DNA of 61,580 bases, counting the filler, from Stramenopiles sp. TOSAG23-3 (Eukaryota), in the NCBI GenBank assembly GCA_900128585.1. It is 19 parts of 19 records of this genome, joined end to end, with 100 filler letters (N's around TTAATTAATTAA, not from the genome) between each part and the next. Parts side by side here need not be neighbours in the genome. Positions count along the whole stretch, not along the records: positions 29,295 to 32,441 come from LT644391.1; positions 32,542 to 35,687 come from LT644392.1; 17 more parts are not named here. One strand, written 5' to 3'. Within the stretch, counting starts at the first letter, position 1, and every line of letters starts with the position of its first letter. The position numbers and the translations under genes are program-made. The notes under the pieces are model-generated. The model saw nothing but the letters and a program-made list of their open reading frames with translations, ran no database searches and was not told where the DNA came from. Positions 1-32,542 of this stretch are shown here, piece after piece.

Positions 1-2
1 GG

Positions 3-455
3 CTCCTTACGCTGACAGAAGAACAGCTGGCGGCGCTTCACCAAGTGGCAGAAGTGTTTCGATATTACGATACGGACCGTAACGGTTGCTTAGGCCGTGA
101 CGAATTCTCTCACTGCTTTAATTATTTGAAAGAATCGGGGTACACGATTGGCGCACGTTCGCAAGAGGATGTAATGACAGAGGTGGATACTGGGCACGAT
201 GGCAACATAAATTACAACGAGTTCATCTCGTGGATGGTTACCATTGGCGTCCTAGAAGTCTCGGGCATCAAACGTGTCGATCTAACCCAACACCAGATTG
301 AGAATTTTGCAAGAAAGTCATTTGTTGAAGGTCAAGAAATCCTCGCAGAAGGAGGTGGAGAAGAGGCATTTGGCGGAAGCACTTTAACCAGTGTAACAGG
401 GGAAGCAACGACGGTTACAGAGACAGCGGGCGCATTGCAAGCGCAGGGTCTCTGA
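3..455 (+). CDS. EF-hand calcium-binding protein, C-terminal part (5' truncated)
   Basis: Frame is open from base 3. Two EF loops, DTDRNGCLGRDE and DTGHDGNINYNE. Confidence 0.85.
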   Translation, partial: LLTLTEEQLAALHQVAEVFRYYDTDRNGCLGRDEFSHCFNYLKESGYTIGARSQEDVMTEVDTGHDGNINYNEFISWMVTIGVLEVSGIKRVDLTQHQIENFARKSFVEGQEILAEGGGEEAFGGSTLTSVTGEATTVTETAGALQAQGL

Positions 456-742
456 AGAAAAAACATGATAGACCGACTAATAAATATAGATAAATATAAT
501 AATAATGAAGAAAGAATGATTTTATAATTTTAACTTTTTTTTAACTTCAAGCTAAAGAGAGAGACTAATAATTATGAGGGTGCTATTTCTATCTTATAAT
601 GTAATAAATACTCTCAAGTTGTTAACTGATGATGAATATTAATAATATATGAACACAGCATAGAGATAACGAGGCGAATGGAAGATTTTATTTTTTTTAG
701 ATTTTGATGATGATAGATAATTATTTTTTAGAGTTCAGTATC

Positions 743-754
743 TTTGGCGCGGAA
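743..754. promoter_or_regulatory. E2F-like site (TTTGGCGCGGAA)
   Basis: Matches the TTTSSCGC consensus within an AT-rich spacer upstream of MLH3. Confidence 0.3.
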
Positions 755-1142
755 TTGAAATGTTGAACATTATTTTTTTTAACTATTTGAAATGAAGATT
801 TCTTTATGAAAAAACGATAATTTTTATAAATTTCAAGTCGTAAAAGTGGTTTGAGATACACAAAATTGTGCCAGTATGGTTCATTTTTCTAAAGCTTGCA
901 AAAGAATAAGTGATTGTTTGGGTGGTGTTTGGTCCAAATCGTCCATTTCACAAAAAATTGTCCCTACGAACCGTAATTCCAAGTCAATGGACGGCAAACA
1001 TTTTACAAACGTTCGTTGGGGAGCGAATGTCGTGAGCGGGGCAATCGCGTGATCTAAACTTAAGCAAATATGCGTCCTCCTGCCTTTCGTTTGTCATTTT
1101 CTGGATAAACGCTTCCATACTTTGAAATTCCAGGAAGATTTT

Positions 1143-1154
1143 TTTTCGCGCCAA
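1143..1154. promoter_or_regulatory. E2F-like site (TTTTCGCGCCAA)
   Basis: Matches TTTSSCGC about 470 nt upstream of the MLH3 ATG. Confidence 0.35.
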
Positions 1155-1616
1155 GGCGAGTGGTCACTTTATTGCTCAGGTGTCTATCATGGCCTTTTAC
1201 TTAAAGAAAAATACCGATGGTCGTGTTGACAAAATGGGAACAATTTTCATCATTAAGATAGACACAGCATTAATAAGAAGAAGAAACTTTCGAATGTAAA
1301 GTAATTATTAATACAGGGCAACACAATGGGAATCAGCGAAACAATAAAAATGATGATGATTTTTTTTTACCCAACACGCCTCGTCGTCGCTACGCTGATA
1401 AATTCAAAGTAAACAACTTACCATTCTAAAATGAATTATAAAGTATGACTTATAAGTCATTTAAGACCGGAAAAATGCCTAAGCGTTGTAGACACAAAGA
1501 TTCACCTTTGAAACCAACATAACTACGATCGTCGTGCGTACCATTCTACCCAAGAGCTTTCTGCGTCGGAAGACACGCCCGAGAGACACGCACTCGCATC
1601 AGCGAAGAGCACTCCA

Positions 1617-3165
1617 ATGAATAGACTAGCGGGGAAAGACATTGATTTCCTTCGATGCCGAGTAACACTCCCTAGTTTTTCGAGAATTGTGGACGAACTT
1701 GTAATGAACGCACTAGATGCAAGTGCGACAAAGATAGAATGTTTTGTTCGGCTCGAGGGCCTCTTGTTCGTGAGGGTATGGGACAATGGCCACGGCATTG
1801 CCCCCGACAGCATGAAGCAGCTCCTGGGAGGGTCCCACTCAACATCAAAATCTGGCTCTGCTCGTACGTTTGGTTTCAGGGGCGAGGCTCTGTACTCCCT
1901 GGCAACCCAGGCCCGTGAGATGGAAATACTGTCTTCTTGTCCTGGGAGCAATTTAGTGTACAAATTGGTAAAGTCGAAACCAAATCAGCTGGTGTCCAGA
2001 ACGACCAACACCTCCACGCCTTCGTTCACGAGTGTAACGGCGAGGGACGTGTACCACCGGTGGCCCGTTCGAAGAAAAGCTTTGGTTCCTACCAAAGAGA
2101 TTGTCGATATACAGCGTCACCTGATGACTATCCTGCTGCAGCACCCATCAGTGAATTTCAGCCTTTTTCAAATAGACAGTAGGGGTCAGAATACAATAGA
2201 AGTCATGTCGATCAGATCGTCGGCGTCAGTTCAGCTGCACTGGCTGCAGATGCACCCAGAGTTCGATCAAACCAGTTTTGGGACCGTGGCGTTCGCTTCG
2301 GGCAGGTTTGGGTTTGATTTGGTGTACTCCCGAGAGATTGTCAAAACGAATTCCCACCAGGTAACGTATGTGAATGGACGACACGTCCTGCTGCCATATG
2401 TATGCCGAGCGGTGCACGAAATCTTACTTGAAAAATACGGGACGCAGTCAAAATGGGTCGAGCGGGGCTGCAAGTTTTTCCCAGTGTTTTGTCTCAACAT
2501 CGTTTGCAAGCCTGATGAGTACGATATCCTGTTCGATCCCCAGAAAGCAAAATGTTGCTTCTTCGACGATGAAAGCTTGATGTCTAGTTTGAAACAATTC
2601 GCCAGCAAAATAATAGGAAAGCCTTGTACGGCAAGTACTTCGGCAGTTCCAACGGTGACTTGGCAGGCCCGGCCGGCGGCCTCGGGCGCCCTTCAACGGA
2701 ACCCCCGGCGCCTGATGAAACGGAGAGTGACGGGAGAGACTGTGTTGCCGGAATTCTCGCTTGCGCAAATGTACGAAAATTTTGTCGCCACCCAATTTGA
2801 AGGCCGCCCATTAGAGACAAACTCAGACGAAATTCGGGTAGGAAAATTTAAAGGGGTCGCGCCAGCGCGGGCAAAAGAGGCAGTACCGCGAGCCGAGCTG
2901 CATTCGCTGTTCTTGATTGGGCAATTCGACCGAAAATTTGTCATTGCGGCAACGAAAAATCGGCAACTGGTCTGCATCGATCAACACGCAGCCTCGGAGC
3001 GGGTCAATTTGGAAAAGTTGGAAGACTCATTTTTGTCAACACTTGAGCGCGATGGAACGTACCGTACTATGTCTTCAGGAACAGAACACGAACGGGTGAT
3101 CTCGCCCCCTGAGAAGGTGGTACTTTCTGGTTTGTATCTAAAGTCCGTGGCGCGCTTTTCAAAGG
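1617..3165 (+). CDS. MLH3: MutL-family mismatch repair/meiotic protein, MLH3-like (3' truncated)
   Basis: GHKL motifs ELVMNALDA, DNGHGI and TFGFRGEALYS. C-terminal GQFDRKF and endonuclease motif DQHAASERVNLE of the MLH3 type. Confidence 0.85.
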
Positions 3166-3265
3166 NNNNNNNNNNNNNNNNNNNNNNNNNNNNNNNNNNN
3201 NNNNNNNNNTTAATTAATTAANNNNNNNNNNNNNNNNNNNNNNNNNNNNNNNNNNNNNNNNNNNN
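3166..3265. other. Artificial contig spacer (first of 18)
   Basis: 44 N + TTAATTAATTAA + 44 N. Others start at 6430, 9687, 12943, 16198, 19449, 22699, 25947, 29195, 32442, 35688, 38932, 42174, 45416, 48655, 51889, 55121 and 58351. Contig lengths fall from 3164 to 3130. Confidence 0.98.
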
Positions 3266-3750
3266 CCAACAAGGATTAGCAAGATCACATCCCAGAACGT
3301 TCTCTGTTTTGCGTTGCAGCTCAACAAATACCAGGGCTTTTTTTGCAGTTCTGCCCCATCAACAGTAATGCTTTTCGTATTAGAACCCTTTGCATTTATC
3401 GCCGCATTAGTCGCGAGAATATAGTTTGAAATTTCTTTCAACGACCGGCGGCGGTGTGTGCGCAACGATGAGCTATACGCTCTTAGCTCCGCATCAACTG
3501 TTGTTCGCCGCTTTGGTGTTTGGAAAGATGGCCGGTCTACGGATGTGCTATCATACGAAAAATAATTCCTCGCTCTCTGCTGTTCAGAAATAGACAGACT
3601 CCTTTCCCTTCCAGAGAGATTAGTGAAGATTGGTATCGTTGGGGCAGAAGAGCCGCTTAAAGTTGCTTCACTTTCCGGGTCCGGGCAAGACTTGCCATTG
3701 CCTATTGTTGGCAAAACGACCGTGGACTCATATCCGGTTATACTCGACAT
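3266..3750 (-). CDS. N-terminus of a probable cyclic-nucleotide-gated/EAG-like cation channel (3' truncated)
   Basis: Low-complexity N-terminus, then PWYLL...RTFWDVILLILV, typical of the pre-S1/S1 segment. Runs into the contig end. Confidence 0.55.
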
Positions 3751-4365
3751 TGTGATGAGCGCGATGATAACAACATTTTCAGAGATGGTTCAGTTTAATA
3801 CCAAATGTTTCACGGCTTGAATGATGAATTTGAACTTGGTGGCAGTAGCCTCCTTCGTTTCTTTTTATTCTGTTAATCTTTCTCTGCTAGCTGTTGGTCG
3901 ATAGTAGATAGGTCGATAGTAGGATAACAATATCAGAGGAGGGATGTTAGGTCATAATAGCAGAAGGATGTATACTGATGTACTTGATACCCAGGACTCG
4001 CGCAATTTTTTGTGACTTGTTGTGACTTCTCCTCTAAAAAATGAAATATTATTATATATAAGAACACAATATATTATATAATATTAATATATTGTACTTT
4101 GTGTTTGGTAACAACAACTACTATTACGTTATAGTGTTTATTGGCCCCCATGCGGGTACAGCATCATGAGTACGTACTACTACTTTTTAATAAACAGAAC
4201 TAACAGCAGCAGGGTCTTTCTCCGGGGGTCGTTGTCTCTAATTCCTATTTGAAATTGCTTCTACTCCTTTCCATATTTTCAATACCATTCGAATTTGAGT
4301 TTCCGAGTTGTGCGAAAAATTTCTCTCACTTCAACATCTGCCATCTATTTCCTAAAACAACAAAC

Positions 4366-5205
4366 ATGTTGAACATATTCTCGAAAGGAAAAAAAACAAA
4401 GAAAACGACTGAAGCGATCTTTTCTTTATTGTATACCCCGTCTCTACATGTGGAAGAGCTAGCAACAGTCACTGTGGCGACGTCGGAAAGGTTTCTAGTG
4501 CAGCACCATGCAAAAGTTAGAGCTTCGAAACAATTAAAATCCCTAAATATTTTAAGTGATGATCAAAGGAACAGGGGTTTGCCAGGGCAAACATCTAAAT
4601 ATGTTGTTGATCCTGAGTGGGCTAACGAAACCGCAACTAGCATTCGAGTTGCCCTGGAGGATCTTGCTAAGTTCTACAAAAAACACAACGTTAACACTGT
4701 TTTTGTTTTTGAAGCCAATGATTTAGCCGTGTTACAAGCAAACATAAAGGAGCATGCAACATTAGCTTTTCCCGATATTGAATTCTTGTCTTCCGAAATA
4801 ATTTTGGGGGGACCGGAAATAGTTCGAGGAAACACGTTACAAGAGTTGTACGATGCACGATTCCCTCATCACGCGTTTCAAATACGGTCACCACTGGAAG
4901 AGTGCATTGCTCAAGACAAAATTGCCCGCAGCATATATGTTGGCGGTCGTGTTATGATCCAAGTCGGCTGCCCAATGCCGACAGTTGAGCAATTGACTCA
5001 AGAGGAGTTTAAAATTTGCGATCTGGATGGAAACGGGGAGATCTCAAAAGAAGAGTTCCGGGACTGGTATTCCAGTCAGTGGGAAAAAAAATTTGTGTCT
5101 GCTGATACAAATGGGGATGGATCGATCAGCTACGAAGAATTTAAGAACTGGTACGTCCCACATGAAATCAAAATGAAAACCGATTACAAAATGGGAAAAC
5201 CATAA
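4366..5205 (+). CDS. Degenerate DEDDh-exonuclease-like domain plus two EF-hands (paralogue A)
   Basis: First ATG at 4366. EF loops DLDGNGEISKEE and DTNGDGSISYEE. N-terminal domain aligns by eye with the 5457-6239 product. Confidence 0.75.
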   Translation: MLNIFSKGKKTKKTTEAIFSLLYTPSLHVEELATVTVATSERFLVQHHAKVRASKQLKSLNILSDDQRNRGLPGQTSKYVVDPEWANETATSIRVALEDLAKFYKKHNVNTVFVFEANDLAVLQANIKEHATLAFPDIEFLSSEIILGGPEIVRGNTLQELYDARFPHHAFQIRSPLEECIAQDKIARSIYVGGRVMIQVGCPMPTVEQLTQEEFKICDLDGNGEISKEEFRDWYSSQWEKKFVSADTNGDGSISYEEFKNWYVPHEIKMKTDYKMGKP

Positions 5206-5456
5206 TTTCATGACCGCTGCACAAAATAAAGTGCAGTAGAAAAGCGAACAATAATTACTTTATTTGCGATAGGAGCGTACGAAATGTGTTAAATGTAATT
5301 AAATTTTACAATCAAGAATTCTTAATTATACTCTCGGAAATATATAAATTTAAAAACAAATTATTTGATTTTATTTCGATATGTTAGTCTAATACCAAGG
5401 GGATTCAATACGTTTTTTCCCCCGTTTTTTCTCATTTAATTTATATCATCGATACT

Positions 5457-6239
5457 TTATTTTCTATATTCCCGTGAACTGTACCACGTTTTGAATTCCT
5501 CAAAGGAAATAGTATCGTCTTTGTTAGCGTCGGCCAACTTGAACTCGCCTTCCCATGTCTTGCGGTACCACTTTTCAAATTCTTCTTTTGAAATTTCCCC
5601 ATTATCATCTGCATCGCATTCTTTAAAGGCTTTGGAAATGGGATCCAATTCTATCTGGCATTTTCCCTCTTCGCCGAGCATGGATATATACCCGTTTTCA
5701 AGATATGTTTCGATAAGCTCTGCTTGCGCGATTACGCCGCCATTCAAAGAGTGTGTATTGATATTTTTGGCTGGAAACTGGTGTTTATACAATCCAGTCA
5801 AATTGCGCTTACCGTGGTTTTCTGGTCGCCGCAAAAACGGCAATGTCTCAATTCGTACAAATGGAGGTGGACTCAGACCAAGCTTGGCACACTCCGCGTC
5901 GAGCAGTTCATACTCGGAATCATGGTATGTAAGTAGGCATTTGACCTTGTTTCCTTTCCAGAATGCAAACAAATTTTTCAGAGCCGATATGGCCGACACA
6001 CGGTCACTTTCAAACCAGCCTATCTGTTCGCACAATATCTTTGCTCCAAGAGTTTCGTAAGGGGAATCATTTGCATCCGCATTTGAAAACAAAGATTCGT
6101 TCTCAATAAATGCTTGGTATTGGATGTAGGTGGCCCCGACAAGGCAGCTCGCAATACCCACGATGTGACGGCTGAATGGATCGGCTCTTAGTTTCGGCAC
6201 TGCCTTTATCTCGAGTACTGCGTATATTTTACTTTCCAT
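5457..6239 (-). CDS. Degenerate DEDDh-exonuclease-like domain plus two EF-hands (paralogue B)
   Basis: YAVLEIKA, LLTYH..EYELLDAEC, IETLPFLR and THS...GV follow DnaQ Exo I-III spacing with acidic residues altered. EF loops DADDNGEISKEE and DANKDDTISFEE. Confidence 0.8.
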   Translation of the reverse strand: MESKIYAVLEIKAVPKLRADPFSRHIVGIASCLVGATYIQYQAFIENESLFSNADANDSPYETLGAKILCEQIGWFESDRVSAISALKNLFAFWKGNKVKCLLTYHDSEYELLDAECAKLGLSPPPFVRIETLPFLRRPENHGKRNLTGLYKHQFPAKNINTHSLNGGVIAQAELIETYLENGYISMLGEEGKCQIELDPISKAFKECDADDNGEISKEEFEKWYRKTWEGEFKLADANKDDTISFEEFKTWYSSREYRK

Positions 6240-6529
6240 TGGTAATTTGCTTATATTGATATTTCTGTTTGGGTTGCTGAATATTTTTAAATATTGGCGT
6301 TGAACCCTTCGCGTTCGTTACATTGTGCGAAACCAGTGGCACTGGCATTATTAATATACCGATAGACTTTGTGAAGTACCGGGAGGAATGGTGTTATACA
6401 TCAATTATTATACTACAGCACCCAAGAAGNNNNNNNNNNNNNNNNNNNNNNNNNNNNNNNNNNNNNNNNNNNNTTAATTAATTAANNNNNNNNNNNNNNN
6501 NNNNNNNNNNNNNNNNNNNNNNNNNNNNN

Positions 6530-6602
6530 TTCTTCTTCTTCTTCTTCTTCTTCTTCTTCTTCTTCTTCTTCTTCTTCTTCTTCTTCTTCTTCTTCTTCTT
6601 CT
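6530..6602. repeat. (TTC)n microsatellite at contig start
   Basis: Perfect trinucleotide run. Confidence 0.95.
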
Positions 6603-7067
6603 TTATTATAATAATGAAAGAAGAGGATTTTTTTTGTACTTGCTTCTTTATTATTGTTTCGTTACTCTAGTGGGATAGCAGGCGAATAATTTTACTATAG
6701 AGAAGCCCTATTATTAGAACGACTACCAGATAATACTATTAACAGTACACTGATAATAAAAAGCACGCTAATAATGAAGAAGAACAAAAAAGAAGATGAT
6801 TGATTGAACATACAAATAGAAGGGAAGAACAACAAAACACAGATCAATCGATGATAGAAGAAGAAGAGGAGAAGATGCGGAAGAAGAAGAAGCACTATGT
6901 AACTTCTGCTCTTTTTTCTTTACTAGATGGAATACGTTCGTATGACAAAATAGAATCATTGATTTTCCGATTGTCCACCAATGAAATGGGTGAATCAAGA
7001 GGGAGAGAGAGAGAGTTGTTGGTGTTTATTGTGCGAAAGTTACGATAAATACACAAGAGTTTCAGTG

Positions 7068-8492
7068 ATGGCGGACCCAGGGGAGGGCAGCGACGGTCGT
7101 GGCGGCGGCGAGCAAAACCGGAGGACCATGTCCAATATTAAAAAGCGCATTCGTGTCGCCGGGGACCGGAGGGCGTTTCGTAGGACACGGTCTACGATCG
7201 ATAACTTGCGGTTTGTATTCGACCAAGTCGACGTGGACGGGGATGGGGTAATCAAGCGAGCGAAGTTTGAGGACTTGCTGGTCCACTTTGGGATATCGAA
7301 AAACAGCATAGAAGCGCACGAGCGTTTGCAAAACTCTGGGTACGGGGACCAAGACAATATTACTTTCAGCGAATTTACGTCGGTCGTGGAAGAGTGGGGA
7401 ACGAGGGGCAAGGGCATCAACGTAGATGTAGAGGCGGAGCGATGGGCGAACGACCCGATGTTAATCGATGAGACAGGAACTATTTTTGACCCGAAGAACG
7501 AGGAGGAGGAGACGCAGAAGAGTATGACGGATCGGTACTCGGTCATTCCGTTGTGGATGGTTCACGACGAGCGGTTCAAAAAGCTAGTGGCCGGGGGCAT
7601 TGCTGGAATTTTTGCAAAGACGTTCGTCGCCCCCGCAGATCGTGTGAAGATTTTGTTCCAAGTCCATTCGTCGAAGAAATTTACGATTCTCAACGCCGTG
7701 CGGGAATCGGTTAGTATTGTCAATAAGGAGGGGGTCCCGGCCCTATGGCGCGGCAATTGGGCCACCGTCCTGCGCGTGTTTCCATACGCGGGGATACAAT
7801 TTTTAACGTTTGACATGTATTCTGCCTACCTGAAGGGCACGCGGCCTGCAAAGGCAGACGAGAGATACGTTCCCGAATTCTGGCGTCTCCAGGGGGAAAG
7901 GCTGTTGTCCGGCGCCATGGCCGGTGCAACCTCTGTAGCGGTGACCTACCCGTTAGATTTAGTGCGCGCACGGATGGCCGTCCAACAGCTTGACCCGACG
8001 GCGGCTGGAAACATTGGGGTGGTGAACACCTTTCGTTCGATCGTCCGTGAGGAGGGTTACTACGGCCTGTTTCGAGGCATGAAGCCGACCCTTATCGGCA
8101 TCTTGCCCTACGCCGGATTTGCGTTCCTTGGGTTTCACTGGATGAAAAGCTCAGTGGAAAGGATTAAGCAGCGGGAAATTCTGTGGTGGGAGCGCCTCCT
8201 TTGCGGGTCCTTGGCGGGGTTGACCGCCCAATCGATGTCCTACCCGCTCGACATGGTCCGTCGTAGAATGCAGACGGAGCGTGTGGTGTTTGCCGACACA
8301 CGGGAGGTTTCTCGTTATGAGTCGATTAACGGGACGCTGTCGATGATCAGAAAATCAGAGGGCTTTCGGGGCCTGTTCAAAGGCCTGACGATGAATTGGT
8401 TGAAAGGCCCCCTGGCGGTTGGAATCAGCTTTGCCGCGAACGATTACATTCGGAGAGAAATGGGCGTGCTGGAGAAGAGGGAAGTCCCCTGA
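7068..8492 (+). CDS. Mitochondrial carrier (CoA-carrier SLC25A42/SLC25A16-like) with N-terminal EF-hands
   Basis: Three carrier signatures (PADRVK, PLDLVR, PLDMVR). AKTFVAP and LWRGNxATVLRVFPYAGIQF resemble the CoA-carrier clade. EF loop DVDGDGVI. Likely ATG at 7068. Confidence 0.85.
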   Translation: MADPGEGSDGRGGGEQNRRTMSNIKKRIRVAGDRRAFRRTRSTIDNLRFVFDQVDVDGDGVIKRAKFEDLLVHFGISKNSIEAHERLQNSGYGDQDNITFSEFTSVVEEWGTRGKGINVDVEAERWANDPMLIDETGTIFDPKNEEEETQKSMTDRYSVIPLWMVHDERFKKLVAGGIAGIFAKTFVAPADRVKILFQVHSSKKFTILNAVRESVSIVNKEGVPALWRGNWATVLRVFPYAGIQFLTFDMYSAYLKGTRPAKADERYVPEFWRLQGERLLSGAMAGATSVAVTYPLDLVRARMAVQQLDPTAAGNIGVVNTFRSIVREEGYYGLFRGMKPTLIGILPYAGFAFLGFHWMKSSVERIKQREILWWERLLCGSLAGLTAQSMSYPLDMVRRRMQTERVVFADTREVSRYESINGTLSMIRKSEGFRGLFKGLTMNWLKGPLAVGISFAANDYIRREMGVLEKREVP

Positions 8493-8819
8493 AAAGTATC
8501 GTAGCATATCAGAAAAAATTAATAATTTTCGAATATTTTATCATATTATCAATGTACGCGTATACACTTTTGCAAAATGCACGCGCACTTTAAAATGTTT
8601 TTAAAACATTCGCTTACTAACATTTATTTGATTCGTGGCAAGTATTTAATAGCTTAATATGTTGCAGTATATGCAGCAAGATGGCTTCCGGGACAAGGAC
8701 GTTGCGACTGTTTCCCCAACTGGCACGACATGTAGTGCCGCACACGGTGGGAGAGGCTGACGTGATATTTGTAAATATAACTTGTGTGGGTAGCGAAGGT
8801 ATTCAGTTGCGTTTGAACT

Positions 8820-9482
8820 TTAAATTAAATGCATGTTATGATTTATTTGCAAATCATACTTTTCTTGGAATTCATCGACAATGTCATCCAAAGAATCTTC
8901 CAGATCTTCTAACCCTTCAATCATTTGGCATAGTTCTAAGGCCAGTTCTGCCGATTTTGCCGCGGCCTTGGGATTATCCTTGGTTTCAATGTTCACAATA
9001 TGCAACGGTTTGAAATCCACCGACTCACGAATTTGCAAGTCCTCTTCCACAAGCTCATAGACTCGCTCCTCGAAACAGACGGCTACGTCCACCAAACCAA
9101 TAATGTCAGAATCTTGCCATCGCTCGGGTGCTTTCTTAATGTTACGGTTTCTGTCGTTCATATCAAGCATACCGTTCTGTTTGTAGAACTTCTCGTTCTC
9201 CGACTCTAGGGATTTGTAAATGGAATCGTATGGAGTGCCAAACGGGAAGACCCTTGCCCCTTTGAATCCTGGAATTTTGACCTGAGCCCCCGCGCCGTAC
9301 GAGGATACCTTGAGGTTGTTATCTTTTAAAATCTTGTGACCAGCGCAGGATCTGTTCATGTTCGAGGAACAGATCATCGCATAATGAAACTTCCCTTCTT
9401 TCGCACTAGTCTGGCCACTATCATCTTTCGCACGCTTTGAAACGCTCCCGGCCCCTTCGGACTCTGCAGCACGTTTGCTCAT
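8820..9482 (-). CDS. SSU72: RNA polymerase II CTD phosphatase Ssu72
   Basis: CX5R active site CSSNMNRS, plus SSYG..VKIPG, FGTPY, PERWQ and CFEERVY. Likely ATG at 9482. Confidence 0.93.
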   Translation of the reverse strand: MSKRAAESEGAGSVSKRAKDDSGQTSAKEGKFHYAMICSSNMNRSCAGHKILKDNNLKVSSYGAGAQVKIPGFKGARVFPFGTPYDSIYKSLESENEKFYKQNGMLDMNDRNRNIKKAPERWQDSDIIGLVDVAVCFEERVYELVEEDLQIRESVDFKPLHIVNIETKDNPKAAAKSAELALELCQMIEGLEDLEDSLDDIVDEFQEKYDLQINHNMHLI

Positions 9483-29294: not shown

Positions 29295-29540
29295 CCTTTT
29301 CTAGACATTTTTCGAACCGATGATAAGGCCATGTCGGCTGAAATTATGTTTCCATCGGTCCCCGTTCGTATGAATGGTATGGAGGTACTTCGCCCACACG
29401 ATATGGATGGGCATTTGCGTTTAAAATATGGTTCACGGTACATGAAGGATTGCTTGTCGCCATATTGGGATCATGTTAACGAGCGTGCACTGACCGTGTA
29501 CAATTATTCATGTAGAGCTATAGACAAATTATGTTTATAA
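29295..29540 (+). CDS. LicD-family nucleotidyltransferase C-terminus (5' truncated), virus-like contig
   Basis: Frame open from the contig start: FLDIF...MFP....MNG....PHD...HLRLKYG.RYM. Confidence 0.65.
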   Translation, partial: PFLDIFRTDDKAMSAEIMFPSVPVRMNGMEVLRPHDMDGHLRLKYGSRYMKDCLSPYWDHVNERALTVYNYSCRAIDKLCL

Positions 29541-29957
29541 TATTAATCGTACTTTGTATTTTAGTTTTTGCCATTTGTTTCCATCTTTGTAATATTCCCA
29601 TGCCTTTTCGTGTTCTTCAATGGTATACCTCGCTTTCGGAATGCGGTAAAAGGTGCATCCTCTTCCCATTGGATCGGGTACTTTTTTGCCAATGACAGAA
29701 GTATAATTATAAATGTACCCTGTTTCTTTGAGTAACTTGTGTTTAATGCGTACTATCTCATCGTTCCGTTCAACACCAAAGAGTCCACCATCGGTTAGTA
29801 TAGCGTCAAAGGAGTGCGAACCGTACATGGATAAAATTCTCAACCATGTAATGGTGTCAAATATGTCTCCTTTGATATCAGCATCTTCAATGTCTACGGT
29901 GACAAATTCCTTCAACAGGCGAACCTCGCGTATTCGTATTCCGACCAGTAACCACAT
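29535..29957 (-). CDS. Small SAM-methyltransferase-like protein, virus-like contig
   Basis: VTVDI..ADIKGDIFD...SFDAILTDGG resembles FtsJ-like Rossmann motifs. Confidence 0.55.
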   Translation of the reverse strand: MWLLVGIRIREVRLLKEFVTVDIEDADIKGDIFDTITWLRILSMYGSHSFDAILTDGGLFGVERNDEIVRIKHKLLKETGYIYNYTSVIGKKVPDPMGRGCTFYRIPKARYTIEEHEKAWEYYKDGNKWQKLKYKVRLIL

Positions 29958-29973
29958 TTTATATTTCTTAAAG

Positions 29974-30507
29974 TCATTTTATAGTACATATTTCAGACTC
30001 ATCGCGTTCAATGTCGGTTGTAATGCCGGCTCGTCTCCTACTCATTCCAGCACAGCCGATGAATATGTCCAGACAGTAGTACTCATCGCACGCAAAGCAT
30101 TTGCTAAGGCTATCCCTTACATTTGAATTCATATTGAATATGGTTTCAAAGATACATGGAAATACACAGTGTTCTCTATCGCATTTAACGTTTTCAATCC
30201 AACAGTCTGCACACGCACCCGTAAGACCTGCATCAACAAAGCATTCTTTCGAGGTACCCACAAAGTCTTGAAAGGCACATCCTCTAGCAATTTCCGTCAA
30301 CGTATTCCTCTTCTCATGGTACGTAGTATAGTCTTGGACCGTGGAACATTGACCACACGCACCACAGTGTTTGATGGACTCTGATATATTGCACTGTCCT
30401 TGCACTTTGTTGTCTAGATTGTATTTGGGAGCTTCGTAGAGGGTGTATATTAGTAGGAAAATAAACAAAACAATCGATAGTGTAATAAAGCACAACAGGA
30501 CTCGCAT
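29974..30507 (-). CDS. Signal-anchored cysteine-rich protein, virus-like contig
   Basis: N-terminal TM segment; HCGACGQCS, CADCW, CFACDE and CAG..RRRAGITTDIER. Confidence 0.8.
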   Translation of the reverse strand: MRVLLCFITLSIVLFIFLLIYTLYEAPKYNLDNKVQGQCNISESIKHCGACGQCSTVQDYTTYHEKRNTLTEIARGCAFQDFVGTSKECFVDAGLTGACADCWIENVKCDREHCVFPCIFETIFNMNSNVRDSLSKCFACDEYYCLDIFIGCAGMSRRRAGITTDIERDESEICTIK

Positions 30508-30529
30508 TTCTTAGTGCTCGTATGATAAT

Positions 30530-30865
30530 TTATACAATAATACCCTGTTCGTCGATATTTGTCAAAGTATAAAAATGTGGATAGGAGACCGGTATGCTAA
30601 TGTACAAGGACCCCATGCTGGTACGAAACTTCAGATCGGACCATATGGTACCTTCTGGTAAATAATAATCAAGAACGACTTCTCCATCGGACAATGGGAT
30701 GCCTTCAAAGGATGTCTCTTTCATTCGTATACTATGGCCATCGGATGTACAGTCGTATGACATTCTTGGTGTCAGTGGAACCTGTAACTCAACATTTGCA
30801 TGCTGTATTTTATGTGCATGAACAACCGATAAAATATATACTATATAGAAAAGGAAACGAAACAT
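30530..30865 (-). CDS. Secreted small protein, possibly an Hsp20/alpha-crystallin fold
   Basis: Signal peptide; YYLPE...GSLYISIP resembles the last beta-strands of Hsp20. Confidence 0.5.
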   Translation of the reverse strand: MFRFLFYIVYILSVVHAHKIQHANVELQVPLTPRMSYDCTSDGHSIRMKETSFEGIPLSDGEVVLDYYLPEGTIWSDLKFRTSMGSLYISIPVSYPHFYTLTNIDEQGIIV

Positions 30866-30909
30866 TTTAAAAGTGATTGTGTATTTAAATAAGTACTTTT
30901 TCTATTAAA
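30866..30909. promoter_or_regulatory. 44-nt divergent promoter containing palindromic TATTTAAATA
   Basis: Lies between head-to-head ATGs, both in TAAAATG context. Confidence 0.5.
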
Positions 30910-31335
30910 ATGTTTAAATATTGCATTTGGTTTAAATTAAAGGACCACCATATACTCCATCGACACATACAACGGTATGCCAAGACCTTTAACACCACCC
31001 CATTTCCGGCTCATATTACAGTTAAACATGGAATGACTTACGAAGAGGCATTGTCGTACTCGTTCATGTTCCCCCCATCCTACGAACCAATTGGTGTACC
31101 TGTGGTAACCTGTACCGAGGTGGAAGGTCGATCCTTTTACGCCATTGAACAGCCATTGACAATGGGAGCACACATATCGTTGGCATATCGATTTGCACCG
31201 TTTACTCCAGCGGAGCTTTCTGTGATATCCCCTATCGTGCGTATCTCCAGTACCGATCTAAACATATGCTTGGCCGACTGTTCGGAGGCCATCGAGAAAT
31301 GGTCTGTAGTATATAAGATGGATGAAACTATGTAA
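30910..31335 (+). CDS. 2H phosphoesterase (cyclic phosphodiesterase-like), virus-like contig
   Basis: Two HxT/S motifs: FPAHITV and AHISLAY. Confidence 0.8.
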   Translation: MFKYCIWFKLKDHHILHRHIQRYAKTFNTTPFPAHITVKHGMTYEEALSYSFMFPPSYEPIGVPVVTCTEVEGRSFYAIEQPLTMGAHISLAYRFAPFTPAELSVISPIVRISSTDLNICLADCSEAIEKWSVVYKMDETM

Positions 31336-31719
31336 ATGACCGAGTGTTATGTTTGTCTAGAATCGTGCACAACATCCGCGCCTTGCTTGTGCAAAAATTT
31401 GTATTTGCATCCCAACTGTCAAATGATAATGCGCGTGTATGAACAGAATCATTGTGGTATTTGCAAAACACCATATGAACAAGAGAAACAAATAACTAAA
31501 ATAAAAACTAGATATGTTGTCCTATGCAATTTAGTTAGTGCGGTTCTTTTGCTACTTGTATTTCATCTCTTTAATGGTCAGCCTTTTTCATTAGAGTATG
31601 ACAGCGTACCTTTTCTTGTTTTCTTCTGTTTTAGTTTTTGGTGTAGTGGATTTGCGCAAACATTACAGCAAAGGCGAAATAACTTAAATCAACCACAATA
31701 TCGTGGCCCAATGGTTTAA
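31336..31719 (+). CDS. RING-variant (C4HC3, MARCH-like) E3 ligase with two TM helices
   Basis: CYVC..PCLC...HPNC..CGICK followed by two hydrophobic segments. Confidence 0.8.
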   Translation: MTECYVCLESCTTSAPCLCKNLYLHPNCQMIMRVYEQNHCGICKTPYEQEKQITKIKTRYVVLCNLVSAVLLLLVFHLFNGQPFSLEYDSVPFLVFFCFSFWCSGFAQTLQQRRNNLNQPQYRGPMV

Positions 31720-32410
31720 AGGAGAAACTTCCAACGTTCAAACCAACTAAAAACACATGTACATATGCCCCCATCGATCGCGCACTAACTAAAATAAAGG
31801 CTAGTAAAAATATCAACACTACCAAAGGATACAGAACATAGTATTCTCGCTGCTGGATAAATAAAAGTTCATTGCTAGAAGCTTTGAACATAAGCAATTC
31901 GTCATCGTTCATTTCGCGTGGAGTTTGACCCTTTCTTCGTATTTCTCTGTAATTGGATATACCGAGCTGCTTCTTTTTGCTCAAAGTGGTAGATTCTAGT
32001 ACGTACAGTCGGTTGCTATCGTAACAACTATGGTGAAATCTATTCTCGATGTCGTCTTCAAACACATTCAAATGCAAATGGGCAATTCGGTAACCCGGTG
32101 CCTTTTCAAACAGTGACTCGTCAATCTTGCCCAACCGCTTCTCTGCATATCGTATCAAAAACATGATCTCTTTGTATAGATGGACGTAAAACATAGTCGC
32201 AACAGCTACGCACGCGTTCAATGGGTCACCCATGAAGAGAATACCATGGAAAAAAATAATCCAATACTTCCTATAAAATTCCTTTTCCATAACAACATAT
32301 TTGTACTTCATATGCATCAATGGGTACATAAAACAAAGGTAATAAAGCATCATCATCGGGAAGAAAAAGAAATACAATGACCGAACAAATGGCAAATGTC
32401 CAGTCAACAT
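31631..32410 (-). CDS. Multi-pass membrane hypothetical protein, virus-like contig
   Basis: 259-aa ATG ORF with hydrophobic N- and C-terminal blocks. Confidence 0.7.
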   Translation of the reverse strand: MLTGHLPFVRSLYFFFFPMMMLYYLCFMYPLMHMKYKYVVMEKEFYRKYWIIFFHGILFMGDPLNACVAVATMFYVHLYKEIMFLIRYAEKRLGKIDESLFEKAPGYRIAHLHLNVFEDDIENRFHHSCYDSNRLYVLESTTLSKKKQLGISNYREIRRKGQTPREMNDDELLMFKASSNELLFIQQREYYVLYPLVVLIFLLAFILVSARSMGAYVHVFLVGLNVGSFSFKPLGHDIVVDLSYFAFAVMFAQIHYTKN

Positions 32411-32542
32411 AAGAACACAGACAGACGAATAGCCGAAAAATNNNNNNNNNNNNNNNNNNNNNNNNNNNNNNNNNNNNNNNNNNNNTTAATTAATTAANNN
32501 NNNNNNNNNNNNNNNNNNNNNNNNNNNNNNNNNNNNNNNNNA

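Follow-up and report, generated by a model that had tools for sequence, protein, structure and literature searches.

A gene-dense contig in a stramenopile assembly very probably comes from within the genome of a free marine mirusvirus

How did a compact run of virus-like genes come to lie in the genome assembly of a protist, and to which virus does it belong? The question is raised by positions 29295..32441 of a 61,580-nucleotide (nt) stretch of DNA from Stramenopiles sp. TOSAG23-3 (GCA_900128585.1), hereafter the window, which consists of 19 contigs of about 3.1 kilobases (kb) each, joined via an N44-TTAATTAATTAA-N44 linker. The interval is exactly one whole contig (LT644391.1, here G000:C4923; 3,147 base pairs (bp)) of a 28.4-Mb assembly with 7,088 contigs, and because the window is linker-joined, the contigs beside it there are unrelated to it. 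An earlier note, made from the sequence alone, had taken C4923 for part of a large DNA virus of eukaryotes, Nucleocytoviricota or mirusvirus-like, either co-binned or endogenised. The viral origin is supported by viral synteny, viral neighbours on both sides and intact genes; of the paired options, mirusvirus and co-assembly are strongly favoured over Nucleocytoviricota and endogenisation. We therefore find that C4923 is very probably an internal genome piece of a free marine mirusvirus, most plausibly of the Demutovirales, which would have been in or on the protist cell or cells when their DNA was amplified and was then assembled together with the host.

Seven small open reading frames (ORFs) fill 97.4% of C4923, with successive gaps of -6, 16, 22, 44, 0 and -89 nt, and both contig ends fall within genes; the tight packing described in the earlier note is borne out. 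Both stop codons of the convergent ORF1 and ORF2 lie inside TTATAA at 29535-29540, again as claimed. We do not regard this stop pair as a special feature, because tight convergent ends are routine in a viral relative, the IMG/VR record G001, where 7 of 31 convergent pairs overlap by 4 nt. The recurrent AAATG start context is found at all 5 complete starts on C4923 and is a real viral signal beyond chance: it marks 51/110 starts in G001 against 112/888 internal ATGs, and 12/18 starts in the near-identical virus and bin contig C2364 against 11/102 internal ATGs, while in host-type contigs it occurs at just 2/34 starts against 32/236 internal ATGs. When starts in G001, the seawater contig L022 and the window were compared, we also observed TAAATG or TAAAATG at 36 of the 110 G001 starts and at 14 of its 888 internal ATGs; the motif resembles the poxvirus late initiator. 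The host-type AT/GAA spacers said to be absent are nearly so (one run on C4923), a weak sign, since four of the window's 18 other contigs are equally poor in them (0-1 runs). The tetranucleotide profile of C4923 is viral, not host-like, with a correlation of 0.88 with viral contig C2364 versus 0.68 with the other window contigs.

No hallmark gene is visible on C4923, as the earlier note had stated; hallmarks lie on other contigs of the bin and in relatives. G001 (133,808 bp) carries ORF7-6-5-3-2 in the order and orientation of C4923, at 33-57% protein identity. A Pfam run on 53 G001 ORFs and one bin ORF returned Terminase_6N (in G001 at E 1.4e-4, 22.1 bits against a cut-off of 22), TBP, two heliorhodopsins, and M16 and C1 peptidases, as well as, in G001, Ras, Arf, RNAP A, TFIIS, TopoII, PCNA, resolvase and RNR. 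G001 also encodes a 640-amino-acid (aa) orphan protein with 2,101 relatives. Its structural model (predicted local distance difference test (pLDDT) 83) matches HK97-fold capsids, with Z 13.0 to LME-1 and Z 12.6 to HK97 (1ohg; root-mean-square deviation (rmsd) 3.3, 236 aligned), and the protein matches the varicella-zoster (herpesvirus) capsid at E 9.5e-6; an Atlas search with it found nothing. We take this protein, on its modelled fold, to be an HK97-fold major capsid protein. The same capsid gene occurs together with ORF7-6-5 in G004 (179 kb, classed with terminal repeats) and in G006. ORF2-4 were not found in positions 1-9000 of G004, so that the block is kept there in part only.

In the main text of Gaia et al. 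(2023, PMC10132985), TBP, heliorhodopsin and M16 peptidase are described as enriched in mirusviruses, and the gene set of G001 matches the profile given there, which indicates the mirusvirus class. The main text of Medvedeva et al. (2025, PMC12768974) describes the Demutovirales as marine, intron-poor, polymerase-encoding mirusviruses. The virus of C4923 probably belongs to this order, judging from its marine setting, its scarcity of introns and its complete informational module. Shared with Mirusviricota and Demutovirales are the HK97-fold capsid and terminase with PolB, RNA polymerase, TFIIS, TBP, heliorhodopsin, M16/C1 peptidases, Ras and RNR, the marine setting and the dense, mostly intron-free genes. 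Two things differ: this virus comes from a one-protist assembly rather than a bulk metagenome, and its ORF7-RING-2H-ORF4-ORF3-ORF2 block goes unmentioned in the passages of both papers that were covered.

The capsid and PolB genes that the earlier note had advised looking for elsewhere in the bin are present. PolB lies on contig C6476 (E 3e-105), TFIIS and TBP on C732, RNAP A on C6566, a terminase piece at 79% on C176, and capsid pieces at 65-72% on contigs other than C4923; 12 bin contigs, together about 105 kb, were judged viral, which is a lower bound. The PolB, RNAP and TFIIS contigs would be tied to C4923 through synteny with G001 and through a common repeated gene family, rather than through physical overlap. 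This family of 190-250-aa Cys-rich basic proteins recurs, at 73-84% DNA likeness, across the bin viral contigs L068-L074 (C5768, C6476, C6566, C2741, C806, C732), with up to several copies on C6566, and again at L022:11962-12531; it looks like a mobile endonuclease and has no Pfam match. We note separately that the capsid pieces on L018 (G000:C1065) and L021 (G000:C685) have different nearest relatives, at about 60% versus 87-93%, respectively, to P0178-P0184 and P0020, a sign that the bin may contain two mirusviruses.

A link to a free virus comes from seawater. Contig L022 contains all 3,147 bp of C4923 at 98.7%, L023 does so at 93.5%, and both have the seven genes in the same order. Five bin contigs (C2364, C5067, C2088, C4923, C2222) tile L022 positions 1-8556 with one copy each; consequently, both neighbours of C4923 are viral, without a host junction at either end. 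Codon changes are mostly silent (27 silent and 15 amino-acid-changing relative to L022, 125 and 60 relative to L023), and no stops or indels were found in the C4923 genes relative to either contig. By these comparisons, the genes appear intact and under purifying selection. Of the sampled words, 0.57-0.70 are also present in each of 14 DNA runs of 9 further studies, 13 of these runs being labelled marine or seawater, and in the 1-Mb seawater run X4 the C4923 virus is at very high depth. Among the 24 runs listed, a single sample of organism A has 88-100% of the sampled words and may be the source of C4923; the C4923 stretch lies inside one 18,979-bp contig of run X1, which may likewise be its source. 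When metagenomes were scanned with the ORF3 alignment, 43 of 134 candidates were confirmed, and these fall at 42 loci; block gene counts given below were taken over these loci and L004 (43 in all), many of them too short for the whole block.

C4923 could instead be part of a large, recently integrated mirusvirus, a giant endogenous element in the protist chromosome, as its position in a eukaryote assembly, the bulk of viral contigs in the bin (at least 12, about 105 kb) and the short mirusvirus-like pieces within host-type contigs described below might lead one to expect. We consider this very unlikely: neither end of C4923 has a host junction and both neighbours are viral contigs, the genes show no decay (no stops or indels, silent changes dominant) at 98.7% identity to a seawater contig, and the composition is viral and not ameliorated to the host. 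A weaker point in the same direction is that only one organism A sample among the 24 runs listed holds C4923. A virus of the Nucleocytoviricota having the gene block in common with mirusviruses seems more improbable still. AAATG starts are common to Nucleocytoviricota and mirusviruses, and so fit either phylum. RNR, ubiquitin protease and Ras, too, are common to both in the main text of PMC10132985. Against it, the block genes are linked to an HK97-type capsid gene in G001, G004 and G006; a search for the double-jelly-roll capsid PF04451 matched 0/4 genomes, though no positive control matched either.

Several observations weigh against reading C4923 as a piece of a free mirusvirus. With no hallmark gene on the contig itself, the class rests on relatives at 33-57% protein identity. 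The capsid piece of its own virus was not singled out, and the bin's two capsid pieces would appear to stem from separate viruses. PolB was not found in G001 or in its near-copy G002, both of which are partial records. RNA support is thin: in one metatranscriptome, four contigs of 157-297 nt lie over ORF1, ORF5 and ORF7, and a DNA origin is possible for them.

If C4923 is a piece of a free mirusvirus, was the protist its host? Three host-type contigs (C685, C1320, C6771) carry 90-320-bp pieces of related mirusvirus genes. These pieces turned up by chance when one capsid protein and about 36 kb of viral DNA served as queries, so that the count is a lower bound; the window's 18 other contigs are free of such pieces. 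In C685, an intact capsid piece of about 320 bp (L021:2150-2470), whose protein is 97% identical to P0177, lies between genes for a polycystin channel and an F-box/WD protein in DNA of host-like composition (r 0.92). It would be an insertion or a chimera, and could stem from a co-amplified virus. We rejected its reading as an exon of an intron-rich virus, whose only basis was an acceptor-like left edge, with neither a donor-like end nor a second capsid exon in C685 1-10000. Also on C685 (L021:8964-9998, L097:3-2951) is a host-type gene whose product, about 980 aa long, has two RlaP (RNA-repair nucleotidyltransferase) domains. The piece in C1320 (L017:4597-4833) comprises 79 codons, all intact, from a conserved mirusvirus gene found near the block, with 180/237 nt like L036 versus 155/237 like L022. 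We note that this insert may be longer, as one flank segment weakly matches viral loci and an adjacent 105-aa ORF may belong to it. In C6771, about 90 bp of a decayed ORF6 RING gene (L002:231-330), with deletions of 28 and 12 nt, are identical to strain L023 at 66/69 nt and to the bin's virus (C4923) at 62/69. C6771 is repeat-rich, host-type DNA with sequence in common with host contigs, and a search with its 275-aa ORF in viral contigs confirmed 0/17 candidates. Since the C6771 piece is nearer L023 and the C1320 piece nearer L036, neither was copied from the virus that was amplified along with the host DNA.

The identity of the virus is not at stake in what follows, only its link to the host. 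The virus may have been mere prey or a co-sorted particle that did not infect the protist, with the pieces in host contigs being amplification or assembly chimeras or food DNA, and we give this a little short of an even chance. It agrees with a virus that is widespread in seawater and very deep in run X4, and with the C685 piece, which is as intact and as close to a seawater protein as a chimera should be. It has to assume, however, two junctions with host-type DNA for each piece, and it sits poorly with the deletions in the C6771 piece and its closeness to L023 rather than to the bin's virus, and with the likeness of the C1320 piece to L036 over L022. Whether the protist was infected by the virus or had eaten it we regard as a toss-up. 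The fuller reading, in which an abundant lineage of marine mirusviruses has the protist as a natural host, and the protist carries a current virus as well as nuclear insertions of 90-320 bp from at least two other relatives, we regard as possible but the less favoured of the two. A search of the bin for 18S rRNA, at stricter settings than usual, gave none. A 2026 preprint (10.1101/2025.04.19.649669) reports no high-confidence endogenous regions for marine Demutovirales; its threshold of three viral hits per region makes that survey blind to pieces of 90-320 bp. In the portions of the open-licence literature covered, no host is named for Demutovirales, no mirusvirus is linked to a MAST-type protist, and, among the titles and abstract openings listed, none deals with the ORF5 protein.

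On its own, C4923 adds nothing unusual to a virus phylum already described, and the mirusvirus class is not new, the virus being common in marine plankton and, as a mirusvirus, a relative of herpesviruses; the short mirusvirus pieces in host-type contigs may be a new observation. The hosts of marine mirusviruses are poorly known, and the main value of C4923 is as a clue to the infected plankton cell. If the pieces are real insertions and not amplification chimeras, the protist becomes a candidate host for marine mirusviruses, and if it is indeed the natural host, the assembly would tie Demutovirales to a host and document that infection had recurred. A large part of a mirusvirus genome in one protist assembly, together with related short pieces, makes a specific, testable host prediction. 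The block also supplies two small conserved proteins open to assay, a cyclic phosphodiesterase (CPDase)-like 2H enzyme and a putative membrane RING-CH ligase.

Among the cargo that the earlier note had listed, the LicD fragment, the 2H phosphoesterase and the Cys-rich anchored protein were confirmed, support for the RING-CH-like ligase is confined to its motif, and the case for the methyltransferase is weak. Each of the seven ORFs alone gave no match at E 0.001 in Pfam, NCBIfam or PHROGs. We propose that the block would serve as accessory cargo to remodel host membranes and handle nucleotides.

ORF5 (30910..31335, plus strand; present at 9/43 loci) is a predicted 141-aa 2H phosphoesterase, confirmed as such by the presence of both motifs, the invariant H35-I-T37 and H88-x-S90, and of a 2H fold in its model (pLDDT 87.8). 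The best fold match is the plant CPDase 1fsi (Z 10.6, rmsd 2.9, 131 residues), which shares the two H-x-T/S motifs, whereas ORF5 has only 141 aa and is 13% identical to it; ranks 1-20 of the fold search are almost entirely known 2H proteins. The PDB sequence search with the ORF5 profile gave only noise, and a BFVD search with the model gave 0 matches at E 0.001, although its top rows are 2H proteins. Other 2H proteins (Usb1, AKAP18, phage Acb1 7t27, rotavirus VP3 4rpt, coronavirus ns2 4z5v, penguinpox cGAMP PDE 9bkq) have the same fold and H-x-T/S motifs, and the viral counter-defence enzymes score lower against the model (Z 5.5-6.4) than CPDase does. ORF5 would most likely open 2',3'- or 1'',2''-cyclic phosphates (RNA ends or ADP-ribose cyclic phosphate); destruction of an antiviral signalling nucleotide is a less likely alternative. 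An RtcB-like ligase is a mirusvirus core gene in the main text of PMC10132985, so RNA-end handling by ORF5 would fit.

ORF6 (31336..31719, plus strand; 11/43 loci) encodes 127 aa, in which two hydrophobic segments come after a RING-CH-like (C4HC3) zinc finger, an arrangement shared with MARCH-type membrane RING-CH ligases. Viral ligases of this type include K3/K5 of Kaposi's sarcoma-associated herpesvirus and poxvirus M153R. The ligands C4, C7, C17, C19, H25, C28, C40 and C43 are invariant in 8/8 members. In contrast to the MARCH type, the spacing is tighter, with five residues from the fourth Cys to the His where seven are usual, and Pfam RINGv matched none of the 8 members; the best PDB profile match, the MGRN1 RING, is weak (E 0.034). 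From its motif and segments, ORF6 is likely a membrane E3 ligase, which would ubiquitinate host membrane proteins. Its tail overlaps that of the convergent ORF7 by 89 nt (31631-31719), an overlap of 86-101 nt in 9/9 loci checked, and the conserved residues there are those of ORF7.

ORF1 (29295..29540, plus strand) encodes the last 81 aa of a nucleotidyl/phosphotransferase of the LicD family, which in full has 196 aa and a hydrophobic N-terminus. These 81 aa match the C-terminus of the L022 protein with 100% identity; the N-terminal part of the gene lies on bin contig C2222. The full L022 protein matches Pfam LicD (PF04991) at E 6e-11, with 43.3 bits against a curated cut-off of 22.6. The protein differs from that family in its length of just 196 aa with a hydrophobic N-terminus and in its presence at only 2/43 loci, and it appears to be a recent addition to the block. 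LicD would attach a phospho-alcohol to glycans. ORF2 (29535..29957, minus strand; homologues at 15/43 loci) encodes 140 aa and is a weak methyltransferase candidate: the Methyltransf_31 match has E 0.01 and extends to 2/12 family members, D-x-I-x-T-D-G-G is invariant in the alignment, where the glycine-rich motif I was not seen, Atlas leads of 0.87-0.89 all fall below 0.9, and a PDB sequence search with its profile gave noise and no clear match.

ORF3, ORF4 and ORF7 are predicted to be conserved membrane or secreted proteins without a known family. ORF3 (29974..30507, minus strand; 177 aa) has an N-terminal hydrophobic anchor and, in the alignment of its homologues (17 confirmed among 38 candidates), 15 invariant cysteines. 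ORF4 (30530..30865, minus strand; 111 aa, homologues at 11/43 loci) has a signal-peptide-like start and a relative at another place in G001, at 59%. ORF7 (31631..32441, minus strand; 11/43 loci) is a multi-pass membrane protein of 279 aa in full, of which 10 N-terminal residues are cut off. When ORF7 and ORF5 were each used as a single query sequence against viral contigs, 0/5 and 0/12 candidates, respectively, were confirmed, and an alignment search with ORF7 gave 5 loci.

The best hits of these genes are not consistently bacterial or to syntenic genes of cellular eukaryotes, the outcomes that the earlier note had named as counting against a virus. Among 185,579 prokaryote genomes, profile scans confirmed 0 loci for ORF3 and 1 for ORF5. 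This sole ORF5 relative (L108; NZIM01000061.1, 641-4880) lies on a 27%-GC contig of a Legionellales metagenome-assembled genome, among large-virus-like genes, and the contig is probably a misbinned virus contig. Elsewhere in the window, the contig at 51989-55120 has a GC content of 0.28 and Asn-rich ORFs (AMP-binding enzyme); it is strongly unlike its neighbours and may derive from another organism.

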